DNA of 64,000 bases from a virus: the IMG/VR virus record IMGVR_UViG_3300027816_000081, positions 1 to 64,000 of that record; one strand, 5' to 3'. Both the position numbers and the translations under genes were made by a program. The first letter of the stretch is position 1; each line of letters opens with the position of its first letter. Below the pieces are notes generated by a model, which saw nothing but the letters and a program-made list of their open reading frames with translations, was not told the DNA's origin and did no database searches. Of this stretch, positions 5,077-59,297 are shown piece after piece.

Positions 5077-7128
5077 TTACTTTGAAGTTGCCCTGTACAC
5101 TCCATCCCACTTAGCGGGAGGATTGTTCTTAAATTCTTCAATTCGTTCAATCATCATATCGTAATACTGAACCATTTCTCCTCGCCAATGATGTTTTAAA
5201 ATAGTTGCTTGCTTTTCAGCAGCATCCCAATGACCTTGACGATAAAGCTCCAAAAACTTGATATGGGTAGTCTCTGCTAATATTTCATGGAAAGGTAAAA
5301 CTGTGTATATTTTAGCAGGTTCAGTCTTACCTTTAACTGCAATCAAGTCTAGTTCTATAATTTGATATTCATCTTTGACACAACTTGCTGTTTTGGGTCC
5401 GATAACAATTTTGACACCATAGGGCTTAGATTGTCCTTCAAGTCTTGAAGCGAGATTAACCCCATCACCAAGGCAAGTGTAGTCAAAACGCTGGTCAGAA
5501 CCCATGTTACCAACAACAACGGTGTCAGTATTAATGCCAAGGCCCATACCAAAAGCGGGGATACCTTCTTGTCTGATTTCATTATTGAAGTCCTCCAATG
5601 ATTTGAGCATAGTAAATGCTGTTATAACCGCATCCTTAGCGTGTTGTGGATTGTCTAATGGTGCATTCCAAAACGCCATTTGTGCGTCACCGATATACTT
5701 GTCTAATGTACCCTTATTCTCTAGAATAGCTTTGGTCATAGCAGTCATATACCGATTCATGATGCTTGTCAAGCCCTGAACATCTTTACCGTAGTGTTCA
5801 CTAATAGTTGTGAATCCACGAACATCAGTAAACATGATTGTCAATTCTTGCTCTGTACCACCAAGCTTCAATAGTTCTGGTTGACGCTGTAGTTGTGCAA
5901 CAAGATCAGGACTTAGATATGTACCAAACTGCTTCTTAATCTGTTGCTTCTGTAAGTACTCGCTGATAAACTTAACAGTATAGATGTGCAGATAGATTAC
6001 TAATGCAGCCAAAACGTTGAAAGAAATATCAAATAATATCTTGTTATGGGTAAATAGATATATCGGAGCGTAAACATAGCCTGCTAGTAATATGCCGATC
6101 CAAACAATTGAGTATCTTACTCTTGACAGTAAGATAATCAAAACTGAGAGGACAACAAATGCCAAAAGATCAGCAAGATCCACCCAATTCGGAATTGACA
6201 CCGAATCTCCCTTTATTAGAGTCTCAAGAAGACTGGCCTGAACCGTGTGAGGCATTTGGGCACCAGACGGAGTTGCTACTGGGTTTGCAACGCCTTTCGC
6301 GGTCACTCCGAGAACAACAATTTTCCCATCCAGACGAGGAATATCGCCGCCTACTTCAACAGATTGAAATTGGTAATTTGGGTTCATAAACACCCTGCCA
6401 TATTCGTCGGTCTTAATTATACCATACTGAGGAACACGTAATGCTTCAACACCCGTCTGATTTATCTTCGCTTGATATGAAGGATCTCCCGCAGCAACTC
6501 TCAAAAGTTCTAAAGAAAACGCAGGATAATATTCGCCATTTGAAATCCCTAATAAAGGCACTCGGCGAGTTACCCCGTCCGTCTCAGGAAGAGAAGATGT
6601 TATACCGACGCCTACAGCAGACGCTTGAAGTACTGGAATGTTATCAAGCACACATGGATAGTTCGGAAGAAAATCAGTGGGTTGTCCGTCACCGACTACA
6701 GCAATACCTGTGCGGCGAGGGAGACGATTATCCGTAGAGCATTCTTCTACAAGCGTTTGACTTAACACAACCGGATACTGTTTTAATGTCTCAGCAAGTT
6801 TTACATCAGTGCCCATCCTATCAGGTTCAGACATAAGAATAGTAGTACCAACAAGACCAGCGCCGTTATCATAAAGTTCTCTAATAATCTCACCGTATGT
6901 TTCACGAGAGAACGGATATTGTCCATATTTTTCAATTGCTTTCTCCCCAATATTTGCTACTACAATTTGCTCTGACTTAACTGGTTCACCCAGCATCAGA
7001 TAATCGTAATATTTCAGTTTCATACTGTCAACAAGGAACGGATTCATCAACTTCACTAATAGTAATAGTGATAATGTAGCTAATGCTAGCCAGGGCGAAA
7101 GTAAGATTTTATTCAGTTTGTTTAACAT
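5077..7128 (-). CDS. CHASE2-domain class III adenylate cyclase
   Basis: N-terminal TM, CHASE2 (GQYPFSR, DGVTRRVPL), 3 TMs, cyclase motifs MFTDVRGFT, DKYIGDA, GNMGS..RFDYTCLGDGVNLASRLEG. Confidence 0.95.
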   Translation of the reverse strand: MLNKLNKILLSPWLALATLSLLLLVKLMNPFLVDSMKLKYYDYLMLGEPVKSEQIVVANIGEKAIEKYGQYPFSRETYGEIIRELYDNGAGLVGTTILMSEPDRMGTDVKLAETLKQYPVVLSQTLVEECSTDNRLPRRTGIAVVGDGQPTDFLPNYPCVLDNIPVLQASAVGVGITSSLPETDGVTRRVPLLGISNGEYYPAFSLELLRVAAGDPSYQAKINQTGVEALRVPQYGIIKTDEYGRVFMNPNYQFQSVEVGGDIPRLDGKIVVLGVTAKGVANPVATPSGAQMPHTVQASLLETLIKGDSVSIPNWVDLADLLAFVVLSVLIILLSRVRYSIVWIGILLAGYVYAPIYLFTHNKILFDISFNVLAALVIYLHIYTVKFISEYLQKQQIKKQFGTYLSPDLVAQLQRQPELLKLGGTEQELTIMFTDVRGFTTISEHYGKDVQGLTSIMNRYMTAMTKAILENKGTLDKYIGDAQMAFWNAPLDNPQHAKDAVITAFTMLKSLEDFNNEIRQEGIPAFGMGLGINTDTVVVGNMGSDQRFDYTCLGDGVNLASRLEGQSKPYGVKIVIGPKTASCVKDEYQIIELDLIAVKGKTEPAKIYTVLPFHEILAETTHIKFLELYRQGHWDAAEKQATILKHHWRGEMVQYYDMMIERIEEFKNNPPAKWDGVYRATSK

Positions 7129-25293: not shown

Positions 25294-26094
25294 TTAGGTA
25301 TTTAACTTGAAACGTTTGATACTATCAATAATATCACTAGGTATATTATCAGGTATATACGGCTTTAGCAATAGTATTTGGTCACCGTATACTTGATTTG
25401 CTGAATTAAATGGCATCCCCAAACCTCGCAGTCTCACTTGCTGTGAGGGCTGTGTATTGGGATGAATCGTTACTTCAACTTTGTTTCCAGCTATTGTGGT
25501 AAACTCAACTTTGGTACCCACAATCAAGTCTAATACTGATATGGGCATGTTAGAATATAGATCATATCCTTGCCTATCAAATCTTAAATCAGGCATTACG
25601 ATATATTCAACGATCAACGTTGCGTTTTCAATAACGTTATCGTATCTAACTTGATCGCCAGACTGTACACCCAATGGAATCTTAAGGTTAATTACCTTTA
25701 CTCCACTTGGTAATGATATCTGCAATATGTGATCATTTCCCTTATATGCGTCTACTAGAGACACAGATACGCGGGTCCTATACATCTGCTGACCGGCACC
25801 GCCTTGAGGACCACGCTGACCAAAGATTTGACTGAATATATCGTTTAAATCAAAACCATGTTGATGGAATTGAAAACCACCAAATGGACTGTTTTGTGGC
25901 TGTGGATTATCATACTGCTGTCGTTTAGCAGGATCACTTAATGTATTATATGCTTCGTTGATCTTTTGGAATTCGGCGGGGTTGCCACCCTTATCGGGAT
26001 GATGGGTCATGGCTAGCTTACGAAAAGCTCGTTTAATATCTTCTTGGCTAGCGTCCCGTGGAACACCCAGAGTGTTATAATGATCCATACTCAT
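25294..26094 (-). CDS. dnaJ: DnaJ/CbpA-type co-chaperone without Zn finger
   Basis: J domain with HPD, G/F region, C-terminal domain. Confidence 0.9.
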
Positions 26095-26126: not shown

Positions 26127-26648
26127 TTATTTCAACAATCCGCCGATTGCAGGAGGTGTTGCCCCTACACTAGTATCAACGGTTGCAGCTCCTTCAATCT
26201 TTTCCTTAGTGCGACCATAAGCAGCGATACCAAGAACAGCACCCATTGCGATGTGGAATAGACCAGCACCCTGTAGTGAGATTGGTTGCCATGGAGTTGT
26301 TACTGAACCTGCTGTAGTTGCCTGCAAGATTGACCATGCAATTGGGAATAGAATGAAGTCAAACACACAGACTGCCATATACATCCAGCCCATTGCAGGA
26401 CGCCATTTCTTGTTGATCCAGTCTTCGCTTTCCTTATCATGCTTTACTAATACCTCTGCGTTTTGAGCAGCGTTATTTCCTGCTTGAGTTAGTGCAGCAT
26501 TGTTAAGATTCATAAGCTGGTTAGCTTCTGCGTTTCTTTCTTTTACTTGTGCCATAAATTCCCCATCGTTTTTCATAGAATCTTCATGCTCATCGTTTTT
26601 TGCGATAAGCTGTAGTTCTTCACTTTTATTTTTTTCTGGTAAAAACAT
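26127..26648 (-). CDS. Putative holin (GTA 3TM-like family)
   Basis: WINKKWRPAMGWMY, TM segments, LGIAAYGRTKEK. Confidence 0.6.
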   Translation of the reverse strand: MFLPEKNKSEELQLIAKNDEHEDSMKNDGEFMAQVKERNAEANQLMNLNNAALTQAGNNAAQNAEVLVKHDKESEDWINKKWRPAMGWMYMAVCVFDFILFPIAWSILQATTAGSVTTPWQPISLQGAGLFHIAMGAVLGIAAYGRTKEKIEGAATVDTSVGATPPAIGGLLK

Positions 26649-26650
26649 AC

Positions 26651-27181
26651 TTACATCCCCGCTATTGCTTTTAAGTTTTTGATGTACTCATCTTCTTTGT
26701 ACATCTTTTTGGTGTCTAGCCCAGCTAGTTCACGAAACTCGTTAAGTTTATCTTCGTCTTTGTCTTCTTTTTTGCTCTTGTATTCATTTGGATTCAAGAT
26801 TAGTTTTTGACGTAACATTTCTTCATCAGCATCTACCTGATCACCTTCAATATCAACTGACCAGTCAGTTAGTTTGAATCCGGTCAATGTCTCAAGATCA
26901 GATAATAATTTGCAAATTCTCTGGGGAACTTTACTTCTACGATCCATTTCAACAAACACTAGCCACTTGCCCGGTTCAATTTCGCCATCGCTAACACTAG
27001 CATCTAATACAAAGTCATATCCTCTTTCAAACCAAGTAACTAAATCTTTTGCTGCAAGTTTGCTATTTGTAGTAAAAGTAACTGTAACGATATCGCTATC
27101 CTTACCCATCTTAGCGGCGTATTCGTCAACAGTGATTGTATCTTTTAATTGGTCTTCTAGGTCCATGTAATCTAGTGCCAT
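26651..27181 (-). CDS. Hypothetical protein with C-terminal LAGL-type motifs
   Basis: DEYAAKMGKDSD..; FRELAGL, LKAIAGM. Confidence 0.6.
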   Translation of the reverse strand: MALDYMDLEDQLKDTITVDEYAAKMGKDSDIVTVTFTTNSKLAAKDLVTWFERGYDFVLDASVSDGEIEPGKWLVFVEMDRRSKVPQRICKLLSDLETLTGFKLTDWSVDIEGDQVDADEEMLRQKLILNPNEYKSKKEDKDEDKLNEFRELAGLDTKKMYKEDEYIKNLKAIAGM

Positions 27182-54319: not shown

Positions 54320-54670
54320 ATGCTTAAGCGACCTATCTGTAGTAGTTGTAATAAGAATTACAGAGCAATCAATTATATCCGTAACGGAAAAACTTACTAT
54401 CGCAGCATATGTGATAGCTGTGGTAAGAAGAAGGCTAAGAAAAAGCCACTAAGACCAAACTGGGAGAAGGCTGGATATAAAAAAAAGCCGCACTGTGATT
54501 TGTGCGGCTTCAAGAGTTTGTATCCTAGTCAAATGACCGTCTTTCATATTGACGGCGATCTTAACAATGTTGCTTTCAATAATCTGAGGACTATCTGCCT
54601 TAACTGCGTTGAAGTAGTCAAGAAGAAAGAAGTCACTTGGAAGAGGGGCGACTTAACGGTTGATTATTGA
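54320..54670 (+). CDS. Zn-finger HNH-like protein
   Basis: Several CxxC; FHIDGDLNN..NNLRTICLNC. Confidence 0.7.
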   Translation: MLKRPICSSCNKNYRAINYIRNGKTYYRSICDSCGKKKAKKKPLRPNWEKAGYKKKPHCDLCGFKSLYPSQMTVFHIDGDLNNVAFNNLRTICLNCVEVVKKKEVTWKRGDLTVDY

Positions 54671-55326: not shown

Positions 55327-56112
55327 TTATCCTTGAATCCAAGTTAGTGGTTGTGAATAATCCTGATACTTACGTAGATCGTCAATCAATCTTTCTTGCT
55401 CGGCTTTAGATTCAGCCTTCATAGCAGAACCATTCAAACTTGTGCCGCCGCCTGGGCCTGCAATAGTTCCAAACTTTTCACGAGCTTCACCGATGATGCC
55501 CTTCAGAACAGCAAGAGTATAATCACCAATCCAAACACCTGCACCAGGATCCTGAATAAGTTCAATTTCAGGACGCTGGATATCAGCCCAGATAAGAATG
55601 CGTTCACCTGAACCCTTGAAGTCACGAACCACTTTCAGTAGTTTGGTTACTGGGTTAAACGTGTAAGTTACATAACCACCAAACATACGTGCTGCAAGTT
55701 CAACATAACCGGCATAGAAGTCGTATGTAGCCATACCGCCTGTATAGTTATAGTTCAACAGGTAAGTGTTCAGAATGGCACTAGAGAACGGATCAAACGC
55801 AGTAGAGCTAGGTCCAGTTTCAAGACCTACTGTTCTACGGAATAATGCACGAACGTTGATAAACTCTTCTGGCAGTGTGTACTCATACACGTTCTTCTCA
55901 ACACGCATAAGGGTATAACTTTCAATCGTTGCGTTCTGCGCTCTTTGACGATAAAGCTTTACTGCATAGTTGTATGCAGCTTCGTAATGGTCTGGATCAA
56001 GTTCAAGATCAATGATATCGCCGCCCAAACGTAAACGAAGGTTCTCAAAGAGACCTTCCTTAAGCTGTGTTAGGTCGTAGTTAGTTGGTGTTGCTAGTGG
56101 GTCTGCTGCCAT
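55327..56112 (-). CDS. Neck protein (gp13-like)
   Basis: LRLGGDIIDLEL, GEAREKFGTIAGPGGGTSLNG. Confidence 0.8.
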   Translation of the reverse strand: MAADPLATPTNYDLTQLKEGLFENLRLRLGGDIIDLELDPDHYEAAYNYAVKLYRQRAQNATIESYTLMRVEKNVYEYTLPEEFINVRALFRRTVGLETGPSSTAFDPFSSAILNTYLLNYNYTGGMATYDFYAGYVELAARMFGGYVTYTFNPVTKLLKVVRDFKGSGERILIWADIQRPEIELIQDPGAGVWIGDYTLAVLKGIIGEAREKFGTIAGPGGGTSLNGSAMKAESKAEQERLIDDLRKYQDYSQPLTWIQG

Positions 56113-56175
56113 AATCGTTTCCTGTTAAAGTTATTTATCAGGAAACGTCATGACCTTTATTCTCTTTTAGGGTTA

Positions 56176-56415
56176 CTAAAGCTTAAAAGCTTCCTTCTCC
56201 TTAGTCTGCACACAGTTGACCACATCCTGAACAGTGTATAGATTTTCCGCTTCATCGTCGGTAATGGAAATATTGAACGTTTCTTCAAGCGTCATTACTA
56301 ATTCAATAACGTCAAGATCGTCGCCGCCCAAATCATCTACTAGGTGGTCCTGATCGCTGACTAGATCAACCCCGAAGTGTTCAGCAACAACTTTTGAAAT
56401 TACAGGGCAACTCAT
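56176..56415 (-). CDS. Acyl carrier protein homologue lacking the phosphopantetheine Ser
   Basis: LVDDLGGDDLDVIELVMTLEETFNISITDDEAENLYTVQD versus canonical LGADSLD. Confidence 0.85.
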   Translation of the reverse strand: MSCPVISKVVAEHFGVDLVSDQDHLVDDLGGDDLDVIELVMTLEETFNISITDDEAENLYTVQDVVNCVQTKEKEAFKL

Positions 56416-56828
56416 TATAGATCGCCCTCTTTGCGGTTTTCGCTGTAGTGAGCATCAAACTTACCACCCGGATAGCGTGACTGTAGCTTGTCTACGTTTT
56501 CAGCAAGCACTTCATTAGGGTCAAGTCCGAGTGCGTTACAAGCATTAGCCCAGTACCAAGCAATGTCGCCCAGTTCACGCTTCATATGGAAGATGTTGTC
56601 CTCATTGAGAGGTTTGCCCTGGAAGAGGATCTTCTTAACGATTTCTTCAAACTCGCCACCTTCACTGCCGAGTCCAGTGCTTGCTGTCATTAGTAACGCA
56701 ATATTGACGTTACTAGAAGCATCAAGCTCCTTAAGGCGTTCAATGAGGGCAGCTAGGTCCTTACTCTGATCACTGCATACAGTGAGGACGAAGTCTGCGT
56801 ACTTGTTTAGATCAATTTGGGTTGTCAT
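56415..56828 (-). CDS. mazG: MazG-like NTP pyrophosphohydrolase
   Basis: GLGSEGGEFEEIVKK, KRELGDIAWY, NVDKLQSRYP. Confidence 0.88.
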   Translation of the reverse strand: MTTQIDLNKYADFVLTVCSDQSKDLAALIERLKELDASSNVNIALLMTASTGLGSEGGEFEEIVKKILFQGKPLNEDNIFHMKRELGDIAWYWANACNALGLDPNEVLAENVDKLQSRYPGGKFDAHYSENRKEGDL

Positions 56829-56839
56829 ATATTTTCCTT

Positions 56840-58000
56840 TTAGAATGCCTTAAGAATGATCATATCAGCGTTGAAGCGACCATTAGGTACAGCCTCAACA
56901 GCCTTGATCTCCTTGAAATACTTACGAGCAGCAGGCTTACTACCCATCAGTGCCTTAATCTGTTCAACGGGCTTGCGAAGCGTCTTAACACCCGATTCCT
57001 TCTTGTCAAAGCCAATCACAGTGTTACCCTTAACCATCAGGCACTTGCTATAATCGTCTGCGACATAGTGATGCATCTTGCGCTTCTTAGTGTCATAGAC
57101 CCAAGCTTCGGTGCTCTCATGAAGCTTAACGGGGCTTAGACCAGTCAATTCAAGCTTGAGTGCATCATCCTTGAACGACTTGCAGTGCTTAAGCTTAGCA
57201 ACGACACGCTCGACCGGAACAGCCTTCTTAGCACGGGGCTTCTTCACAGTCTTCTTGAGTGCGATGTATCCATTCAGTTCTGCAACGATTTCTTCAATCA
57301 GCTTGATAGCATAGCGCATTTGCAGCTTGCCAATGTTAGAGTATGCTTCGTTAAGCTGTTCATCTTTGCCTGCCTGGGCTTCACGAAATTCATCAAGAAG
57401 ATGGCCCCAACGCTTAATCGCAGCAGCGATATGCTGGGGAAGAACGTTGCGCTTTTCAAGAGCAGACATTGCACGACGGTTGAGATTGAAGTCCTTAGGA
57501 TACTTAGCGTCAATGAATTCGTCCCAAATCAGTTCAATGTCGCTAAGGGCCTCGTCAGCCTTTTCACGCATTACTTCCTGAATGTTGACGACCTTTTTGG
57601 GCTTTTCTTCGCCGTCAGTTTCTTCCTTCTTAGCCTTGAGTTCTGCACCTTCGGCAGCAAGACCTTCAACCCACTTCACAATGCCAGTCTTGTAGTTGTC
57701 AGGGATAATGTCAGGATTGACTTCAAGCAAATGTGCAGTGGTAGCCCAATGACTATGCATATCAACCTTCCAGTCGGGAAGACGATTGATCTTAGTCAAG
57801 TAGTCCTTAGGGAAATTCTTCTTGATGTATTCCTTGACCTTAGTACCGCAATCCTTGCGCTCAAGATCATAGTGGACAAAGAACCTTGCCTTTTCCCAAT
57901 TGTCTGTAGGCACCAAGCTAAAACGGTTAACGCCACGACGAGGGGCACGGACAGTCTTCTTAGAAGCTTTAGCTTTAATGAGGGCGGGGCGACGAGCCAT
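56840..58000 (-). CDS. Conserved basic hypothetical phage protein
   Basis: WVYDTKKRK, VKGNTVIGFD, KTLRKP, NGRFN; strong promoter and SD. Confidence 0.7.
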   Translation of the reverse strand: MARRPALIKAKASKKTVRAPRRGVNRFSLVPTDNWEKARFFVHYDLERKDCGTKVKEYIKKNFPKDYLTKINRLPDWKVDMHSHWATTAHLLEVNPDIIPDNYKTGIVKWVEGLAAEGAELKAKKEETDGEEKPKKVVNIQEVMREKADEALSDIELIWDEFIDAKYPKDFNLNRRAMSALEKRNVLPQHIAAAIKRWGHLLDEFREAQAGKDEQLNEAYSNIGKLQMRYAIKLIEEIVAELNGYIALKKTVKKPRAKKAVPVERVVAKLKHCKSFKDDALKLELTGLSPVKLHESTEAWVYDTKKRKMHHYVADDYSKCLMVKGNTVIGFDKKESGVKTLRKPVEQIKALMGSKPAARKYFKEIKAVEAVPNGRFNADMIILKAF

Positions 58001-58031: not shown

Positions 58032-58060
58032 ACTATACAATAGCCATAGGTAATTGTCAA
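58032..58060 (-). promoter_or_regulatory. sigma70-type early promoter
   Basis: TTGACA-17-TATAGT. Confidence 0.8.
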
Positions 58061-58859: not shown

Positions 58860-59297
58860 TTAATGAACTATTTTTCTTGCTGAATTCTTTTGGTTGGAAA
58901 AATCGTTGTTCATTACTGACTTTTTACCATGGCAGAGTTTACAAATGGTGTCTACGTTCTCCGGAACATTATTGAAATGGTCTCCGTCAAGATGCTCTAA
59001 ATCCAATGCATTGAGCATGTCTAGATTTTTCCACGACTTTGATGGTACGGGGCATTTCCAACCCAGCCGGCCATCTGCGTTTTCACAGTATTCTTTTTTG
59101 TGAATCGTAATGCCCGCCATCGCCGGGCCAAAAAACCCAGTCGTTCTAGCTTTATAGCAAGTTCCGCATTCTGATTTGATAGACCAATTTTTCCAATCTC
59201 TAACCATCACCGGCCGAATGCATCCAGGATTGATACAAGTGGGCAGAGAATAACCTTCGCTAAAGAATTTTTCCTTCATTTGCGGGCCTAGTTTCAT
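58860..59297 (-). CDS. HNH endonuclease (possible homing endonuclease)
   Basis: LDLEHLDGDHFNNVPENVDTICKLCHGKK plus CxxC. Confidence 0.8.
   Translation of the reverse strand: MKLGPQMKEKFFSEGYSLPTCINPGCIRPVMVRDWKNWSIKSECGTCYKARTTGFFGPAMAGITIHKKEYCENADGRLGWKCPVPSKSWKNLDMLNALDLEHLDGDHFNNVPENVDTICKLCHGKKSVMNNDFSNQKNSARKIVH

Follow-up and report, generated by a model that had tools for sequence, protein, structure and literature searches.

A viral DNA stretch of 64,000 nucleotides, referred to here as the window, encodes a small protein with the fold of acyl carrier proteins (ACPs) in which the serine that receives the phosphopantetheine cofactor is replaced by aspartate. The loss of this serine defines the whole family to which the protein belongs. 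We propose that the product is a mimic of apo-AcpP which, as an optional accessory of the phage, would compete for the AcpP-binding proteins of the host, a reading to which we give an even chance of being correct.

The serine-less ACP-like gene is located at positions 56176..56415 on the minus strand. It begins with ATG and encodes a protein of 79 amino acids with a pI of 4.05. The protein was assigned to PF00550 (41.1 bits against a gathering cut-off of 20.8) and to phrog_5934, annotated as "acyl carrier protein" (E 2e-17). When the profile of its family was compared with the PDB, housekeeping AcpPs were matched at E 1e-23 to 1e-26. The AF2 model of the window protein (pLDDT 87.6) contains four helices at residues 4-14, 33-47, 53-57 and 62-77. 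The best Foldseek matches of this model are AcpP structures, many of them at a probability of 1.0, and it superposes on the E. coli, Helicobacter and Plasmodium apicoplast ACPs with a TM score of ~0.8 and an rmsd of 0.7-1.2 Å (~0.9 Å). Judged by its sequence and predicted structure, the window protein is a member of the ACP-fold (PP-binding) family with a close likeness to apo AcpP. In NCBIfam it remains below the cut-offs of the AcpP equivalog TIGR00517 (65.4 against 70.45) and of NF002149 (65.6 against 106), and it barely passes the loose subfamily model NF002148 (71.2 against 71), so that annotation pipelines will still label it "acyl carrier protein". At the position where TIGR00517 and PRK00982 expect the serine of a functional acyl carrier protein, Asp33 is found. 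Because the residue that defines a carrier is missing, the name "acyl carrier protein" does not suit it.

The replacement is evident in the DNA. Residues 30-35, G-G-D-D-L-D, are encoded by GGC GGC GAC GAT CTT GAC, the reverse complement of 56311-56328, and the window protein thus has D-D-L-D where carriers have D-S-L-D. The GAT codon of Asp33 lies at 56317..56319 (minus strand) and corresponds to the phosphopantetheine serine, Ser36 of E. coli AcpP, in the PDB profile alignment; in the alignments of the family profile with the PDB, the Asp/Ala column of the family also falls on Ser36. GAT is two substitutions away from all serine codons (TCN, AGY). The preliminary description had recognized an exchange of serine for aspartate in an ACP-like frame with a well-preserved helix II, and had regarded a sequencing error as unlikely. 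The alignments confirm the exchange, and an error is disfavoured both by the distance of GAT from any serine codon and by the absence of serine from every family member recovered.

About 60 relatives of the ACP-like protein were recovered, and all of them lack the serine. Its place is taken by Ala, which is the commonest residue (63% of the family members), or by Asp, Gln, Leu or Pro, and never by Thr or Cys either. A search of 5.8 billion proteins yielded 39 relatives. The 36 close ones, which share 45-99% identity, carry D-A-L-D, D-D-L-D or D-Q-L-D and are without exception devoid of the serine (36/36); D-S-L-D is kept only in the three most distant ones. Leucine at this site was added by loci from viral and metagenome contigs, and proline by a related cluster with an (A/T)-K-H-F-G signature. 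In a profile search against 1.84 billion representatives, which was not biased by the motif, the clusters of the family were all serine-less, and the next-nearest proteins were canonical AcpPs, with serine in 172 of 217 matched domains. The codons found at the site in the relatives are GCN (Ala), CAA (Gln) and GAT. The alanine codons in the genes read as DNA, GCC, GCA and GCT, are a single step from serine, yet serine occurs in no member. To judge from these sequences, a hydroxyl is kept out of the site while the replacing side chain varies freely. This freedom argues against a phosphomimetic role of the aspartate, as had been supposed for the window protein: Asp is not conserved among the homologues, and the same column is Ala in most relatives and Gln, Leu or Pro in others. 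The supposition that the protein cannot be loaded fared better, as the serine is missing throughout the family. With no hydroxyl at the canonical cofactor site, neither phosphopantetheinylation nor acylation can take place there.

The ACP-like gene has the marks of a maintained gene. Its open frame is intact in every copy, and pN among the genes is 0.22-0.34 against a pS of 0.58-0.89. The dN/dS ratio is 0.19 for the single pair that is unsaturated at synonymous sites; dS is saturated in all other pairs, so that the case for selection consists of this one pair and the contrast of pN and pS. From these values, purifying selection appears to act on the gene. The preliminary description had named serine-bearing close homologues, with the window copy in decay, as the outcome that would speak against it; the close homologues are serine-less, and the window copy belongs to a family apparently under purifying selection. 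Across 35 ACP-like sequences 18 columns are invariant, among them D28, D32, L34, D35, I37, E38, L39, M41, L43, E44 and E45. These positions are concentrated in residues 28-47 (56275..56334, minus strand), which comprise DLGGDDLD and helix II (VIELVMTLEETF in the window protein) and correspond to the recognition surface of AcpP. The counterparts of the AcpP residues D35, L37, D38, V40, E41, M44, E47, E48 and D56 are 100% conserved in the 35 members, in the numbering of E. coli AcpP, the docking surface of which may differ from that of the AcpP of the phage's own host. The good preservation of helix II thus extends to the residues used for docking. Mutations of L42, V43 and M44 in E. coli ACP break partner binding (PMC3340395). 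Since the docking helix is preserved and the gene appears to be under selection, a role exerted through protein binding is the natural reading.

The source record is a viral sequence of 99,864 bp with an estimated completeness of 29%. Its tail sheath protein of 1189 amino acids shares 38-47% identity with its counterparts in the jumbo phages Phosso, Atu_ph07, PA5oct and SCTP-2, and close relatives of the MazG encoded next to the ACP-like gene sit on contigs of 333-363 kb. The carriers of the ACP-like gene are a clade of uncultured jumbo myophages. The family was absent from 185,579 bacterial and archaeal species genomes (one genome each), where the ten weak matches were serine-bearing ACPs of planctomycetes. 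A tblastn search of 50,697 phage records returned two weak partial matches only and no cultured relative with the family, and megablast of the ACP-like region against phage records gave no match. From these searches, the family appears to be restricted to phages.

The ACP-like gene is the last of three genes on the minus strand. The unit is preceded by a sigma-70-like promoter, TTGACA-17-TATAGT, at 58032..58060, which is predicted from an 11/12 match to the consensus only. The first gene (56840..58000) encodes a basic protein of 386 amino acids (pI 9.6, phrog_11903). It is found upstream of mazG in most related loci, and the N-terminal third of its product is variable. The 386-aa protein gave no match in Pfam, NCBIfam or PADLOC, its AF2 model is poor (pLDDT 60), and its BFVD matches are uncharacterised phage proteins only; the PADLOC search covered all three proteins of the unit and matched none of them. 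The second gene (56415..56828) encodes a MazG-like NTP pyrophosphohydrolase of 137 amino acids (pI 4.63) with the metal-binding motifs EGGE and ELGD, and was assigned to PF03819 (31.7 bits against a cut-off of 22) and phrog_229 (E 2e-48). The mazG gene and the ACP-like gene meet in the sequence TAATG (56413..56417), in which the last base of the mazG stop codon TAA (56417-56415) is the first base of the ATG (56415-56413). The overlap of one nucleotide noted before is therefore real. A Shine-Dalgarno-like GAGG motif lies ahead of the ACP-like start at 56429-56426 (minus strand). Between the ACP-like stop codon and the start of the following gene, a strong hairpin at 56116..56147 (minus strand) spans the ribosome-binding region and start of that gene; the fold of 56095-56185 (minus strand) has -23.2 kcal/mol and a z-score of -4.3. 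The hairpin has no U-run and was not scored as an intrinsic terminator; a translational switch had separately been suggested for it as a possibility. The following gene (55327..56112, minus strand) encodes a head-tail adaptor (neck) protein of 261 amino acids (phrog_211).

The ACP-like gene occupies a variable place between mazG and the neck gene. This was evident from a survey of 65 related loci showing both of these genes (L085-L164), in which 386aa, mazG, slot, neck and dNMP kinase follow one another in a conserved order. The slot contains the ACP-like gene in 18 of the 65 loci, is empty (25-61 nt) in 19, and is filled by other small genes in 28. The latter encode coiled-coil proteins of 59-62 aa, membrane proteins of 63-69 aa, zinc-ribbon proteins of 65-73 aa or a 192-aa protein. 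The stretch from the ACP-like/mazG unit to the neck gene, 56113-56175 in the window, is hypervariable across the surveyed loci. The neck gene, the downstream border of the slot, follows it directly and shares 74-92% identity across nearly all of the related loci (65% in L164). In our reading, the mazG transcription unit ends in a hypervariable slot of which the ACP-like gene is one cargo. Recombination through the flanks, which are conserved, probably brings about its exchange. Two small Cys-rich ORFs with weak HNH matches flank the region at 54320-54670 (plus strand) and 58860-59297 (minus strand); they are possibly homing endonucleases contributing to local mosaicism.

According to the mechanism that we propose, the ACP-like protein would be a permanently unloaded mimic of host AcpP. 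Its gene would be an optional accessory at the 3′ end of the 386aa-mazG unit, translated by coupling to mazG. The protein may occupy AcpP-binding sites on host proteins in competition with host AcpP, and the processes affected could be fatty-acid, phospholipid or lipid A synthesis, or those served by non-lipid partners that AcpP activates. Apo-ACP is reportedly a potent growth inhibitor in E. coli, an observation attributed to Keating et al. in 1995. Towards MukB, the apo and holo forms of AcpP are equally effective, both in binding and in the stimulation of the MukB ATPase (PMC8602292). Binding to IscS is lost with the S36T variant of AcpP (PMC13343975). Since the serine or the cofactor is required by some partners of AcpP, only a subset of partners could be targeted. 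Rapid divergence outside the docking surface and an optional, cassette-like distribution of the gene are in keeping with a host-directed accessory protein. It also speaks against the proposed mimicry that the strict translational coupling to mazG in every locus is left unexplained by a purely host-directed role, and that the gene is dispensable in most relatives.

The coupling to mazG would be explained if the ACP-like protein served the phage MazG as an optional subunit or as its regulator, directly bound to it and made in step with it. We consider this explanation unlikely, although the association of the two genes is close. The mazG gene is located just upstream of the ACP-like gene in all 25 related loci that include upstream DNA (seven different loci came from the initial scans and 18 from one seeded with MazG; L121 and L001 are one contig). 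In 24 of them the ACP-like start codon and the end of mazG have 1 nt (TAATG) or 4 nt (ATGA/GTGA) in common, and GTG starts, which depend on coupling, are frequent among the relatives. In the exception, L004, an ORF of 62 aa lies between the two genes and the overlaps are again present. The pair persists there even though all other neighbours differ (GGACT, DUF3307, a kinase and an IMPDH/GMP reductase). Co-occurrence on contigs of equal size (P0031/P0298, P0036/P0299, P0011/P0191, P0008/P0278) points in the same direction, and ACP as a structural subunit of mitochondrial complexes offers a parallel. The association is not reciprocal, however. The ACP-like gene is missing beside mazG in 47 of the 65 surveyed loci, even at 90-92% MazG identity, and beside all orthologous mazG genes of the cyanophages, a Methylophilales phage and the PA5oct-type phages; unrelated small genes fill the same slot elsewhere. 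The two proteins do not diverge in parallel (Mantel r -0.42). In L025 and L027 the MazG proteins are 97% identical and the ACP-like proteins 57%, and between L025 and the window the 386-aa protein shares 94%, MazG 91% and the ACP-like protein only 61% identity. Both proteins are acidic (pI 4.6 and 4.05), whereas AcpP partners present basic patches. The two genes are in different frames at every locus, and no MazG-ACP fusion was found among the ten multi-domain serine-less matches that were scanned with Pfam (from the best 150 representatives) or among the best 120 MazG relatives, all of which are single-domain; a search for longer ACP-like proteins gave P0040 only, the N-terminus of which is unrelated to MazG. 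Serine-less ACP-like proteins also occur in other phages without MazG, including a complete phage of 157 kb. The link to mazG looks one-sided and positional. Of the coupling claimed earlier, the overlap therefore stands, while the functional link is unsupported, given an ACP-like gene in only 18 of 65 loci, a slot that is otherwise empty or filled with unrelated genes, and uncorrelated divergence.

Another phage protein could be the partner, for example the 386-aa protein, or the ACP-like protein could be an acidic chaperone or scaffold unrelated to the AcpP partners of the host. Such a role has a small likelihood in our estimation. The 386-aa protein is basic, co-transcribed and conserved upstream, and an annotated ACP of Eneladusvirus was detected in virions by mass spectrometry (PMC7760394). 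On the other hand, most related loci contain the 386-aa gene whether or not they have the ACP-like gene, and the 386-aa protein yields no functional clue. Binding to a phage protein would also not require docking residues identical to those of bacterial AcpP.

The preliminary description had further suggested that a phosphomimetic decoy acts jointly with MazG against the stringent response of the host; such a decoy might, for instance, attach to SpoT as MazG degrades (p)ppGpp. In E. coli the C-terminal region of SpoT is bound by ACP, and L42, V43 and M44 of helix II matter for this interaction (PMC3340395); the counterparts of these three residues are conserved in the family. The suggestion is nevertheless very improbable. 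The aspartate that it requires is replaced by Ala, Gln, Leu or Pro in the larger part of the family, and the interaction of ACP with SpoT is documented only in bacteria with a separate SpoT. The MazG of the window is 49-59% identical over its full length to the MazGs of T4-like cyanophages, including S-PM2; phmmer of the window MazG against PDB sequences gave no match. Purified cyanophage MazG, the closest characterised enzyme, failed to bind (p)ppGpp or to hydrolyse it, and its preferred substrates are dGTP and dCTP (PMC6850273); genes of nucleotide metabolism adjoin mazG in L004 and in the PA5oct-type phages. By analogy, the window MazG is most plausibly a dNTP pyrophosphohydrolase. A joint role against the stringent response thereby loses its main support, and the mazG link is one of position.

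Two further explanations are barely credible. The gene could be a captured acpP that is decaying or has lost its function, or its serine codon could have been altered by an error of sequencing or assembly. This would agree with the dispensability of the gene in most relatives but is contradicted by the intact frames, by pN far below pS with a dN/dS of 0.19, by the 18 invariant columns, and by the recurrence of the same loss in independent assemblies from many samples with a codon two steps from serine. A protein that is still a carrier, loaded at another residue or by another chemistry, could use Cys68, which is present in 80% of the members; this cysteine is not invariant, the neighbours of the gene are mazG, the neck gene and the dNMP kinase gene rather than biosynthetic genes, and within the available 99,864 bp (~29% of the genome) PF01648, the phosphopantetheinyl transferase family, was not matched and PF00550 was matched once. 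We know of no precedent for a carrier loaded at another residue such as cysteine.

Serine-less ACP-like proteins were also found in phages outside the window family (L006, L007, L009/L011, L012-L019 and L035-L049), with D, A, Q or E in place of the serine. They keep the DxLD motif and helix II, as the window family does, and differ from it in sharing less than 45% identity with it, in their genome positions and in having no adjoining MazG. It is conceivable, though we hold it with some doubt, that serine-less AcpP mimics are a widespread and undescribed class of host-takeover or counter-defence proteins of phages, which would jam host machines in which AcpP is a substrate carrier or an activating subunit (lipid and lipid A synthesis, or AcpP-dependent SMC complexes of the MukBEF type), and that the window family is one fast-evolving member. 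In the relatives L009 and L011 a second serine-less ACP-like gene with G-A-D-D-L-D (L009:3402-3632, L011:5968-6198) sits between homologues of the window segments 25294-26094 and 26651-27181, where the window has a 173-aa ORF (26127-26648). In L012-L019, complete phages of ~157 kb with no MazG, a 105-aa protein encoded at ~5836-6153 of each locus carries a C-terminal serine-less ACP-like module with G-G-D-D-L-D. An ACP with G-A-D-A-L-D is encoded at L028:1894-2148, directly 3′ of a FabD-like ORF in what appears to be a bacterial fatty-acid-synthesis operon on a high-GC metagenome contig; its alanine could be a sequencing error or mark a real cellular serine-less ACP.

The loss of the serine affects how such genes are named and counted. 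Pipelines name them "acyl carrier protein", and they are then counted as auxiliary metabolic genes for lipid synthesis. Since a protein without the serine has no usual site at which a cofactor could hold an acyl group, this label is very probably wrong for the serine-less phage proteins. The papers on jumbo phages treat their ACPs as ordinary or auxiliary metabolic genes, and the serine is unmentioned in the available text of these papers (PMC7760394, PMC13573597). The jumbo-phage survey of Iyer et al. 2021 contains no mention of ACPs, and a literature search for serine-less phage ACPs found no paper; the feature is probably undescribed. Should phages indeed use a copy of AcpP that cannot be loaded yet retains the docking helix, it would be both a ready-made natural probe and inhibitor of AcpP-dependent processes and a new kind of host-takeover protein. 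The natural variants with an empty and a filled slot offer a simple comparative handle on the role of the gene.

Among known systems, the housekeeping AcpPs (E. coli 1L0H/1ACP, Aquifex 2EHS; PF00550, TIGR00517) are the closest in structure. They have the four-helix fold in common with the phage protein, share about 40-45% identity with it and are equally acidic, and the DxLD motif and the docking residues of helix II are identical in both. The phage family differs from them in that no member has a serine at the cofactor site, in a deletion of two residues in loop I, in a Gly that replaces Ala ahead of the motif, and in an A-E-H-F-G signature. Its gene is found only in phages and lies in a variable slot 3′ of mazG, not among fab genes. 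For the neighbouring gene the comparison is with the T4-like cyanophages, the MazGs of which are full-length orthologues of the window MazG; unlike in the window, the cyanophage mazG lies among replication genes and has no ACP-like gene at its 3′ side. The "acyl carrier proteins" of other phages (phrog_5934; Eneladusvirus and Flavobacterium jumbo phages) are also small and of the ACP fold and are annotated by homology only (PMC7760394, PMC13573597). Their contexts differ, being near spanins or in a "host-interface island". The nearest functional analogue is the divergent mitochondrial ACP (mACP) of Plasmodium falciparum, which has no phosphopantetheine group but persists as a binding protein of Isd11-Nfs1 (Falekun et al. 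2021, PMC8547962). In mACP the loss was independent, the setting is eukaryotic and organellar, and the partner is known, whereas a partner of the LYR type is not evident on the phage side. In both the Plasmodium protein and the phage family the cofactor has been lost, and in mACP the protein has been retained for protein binding.
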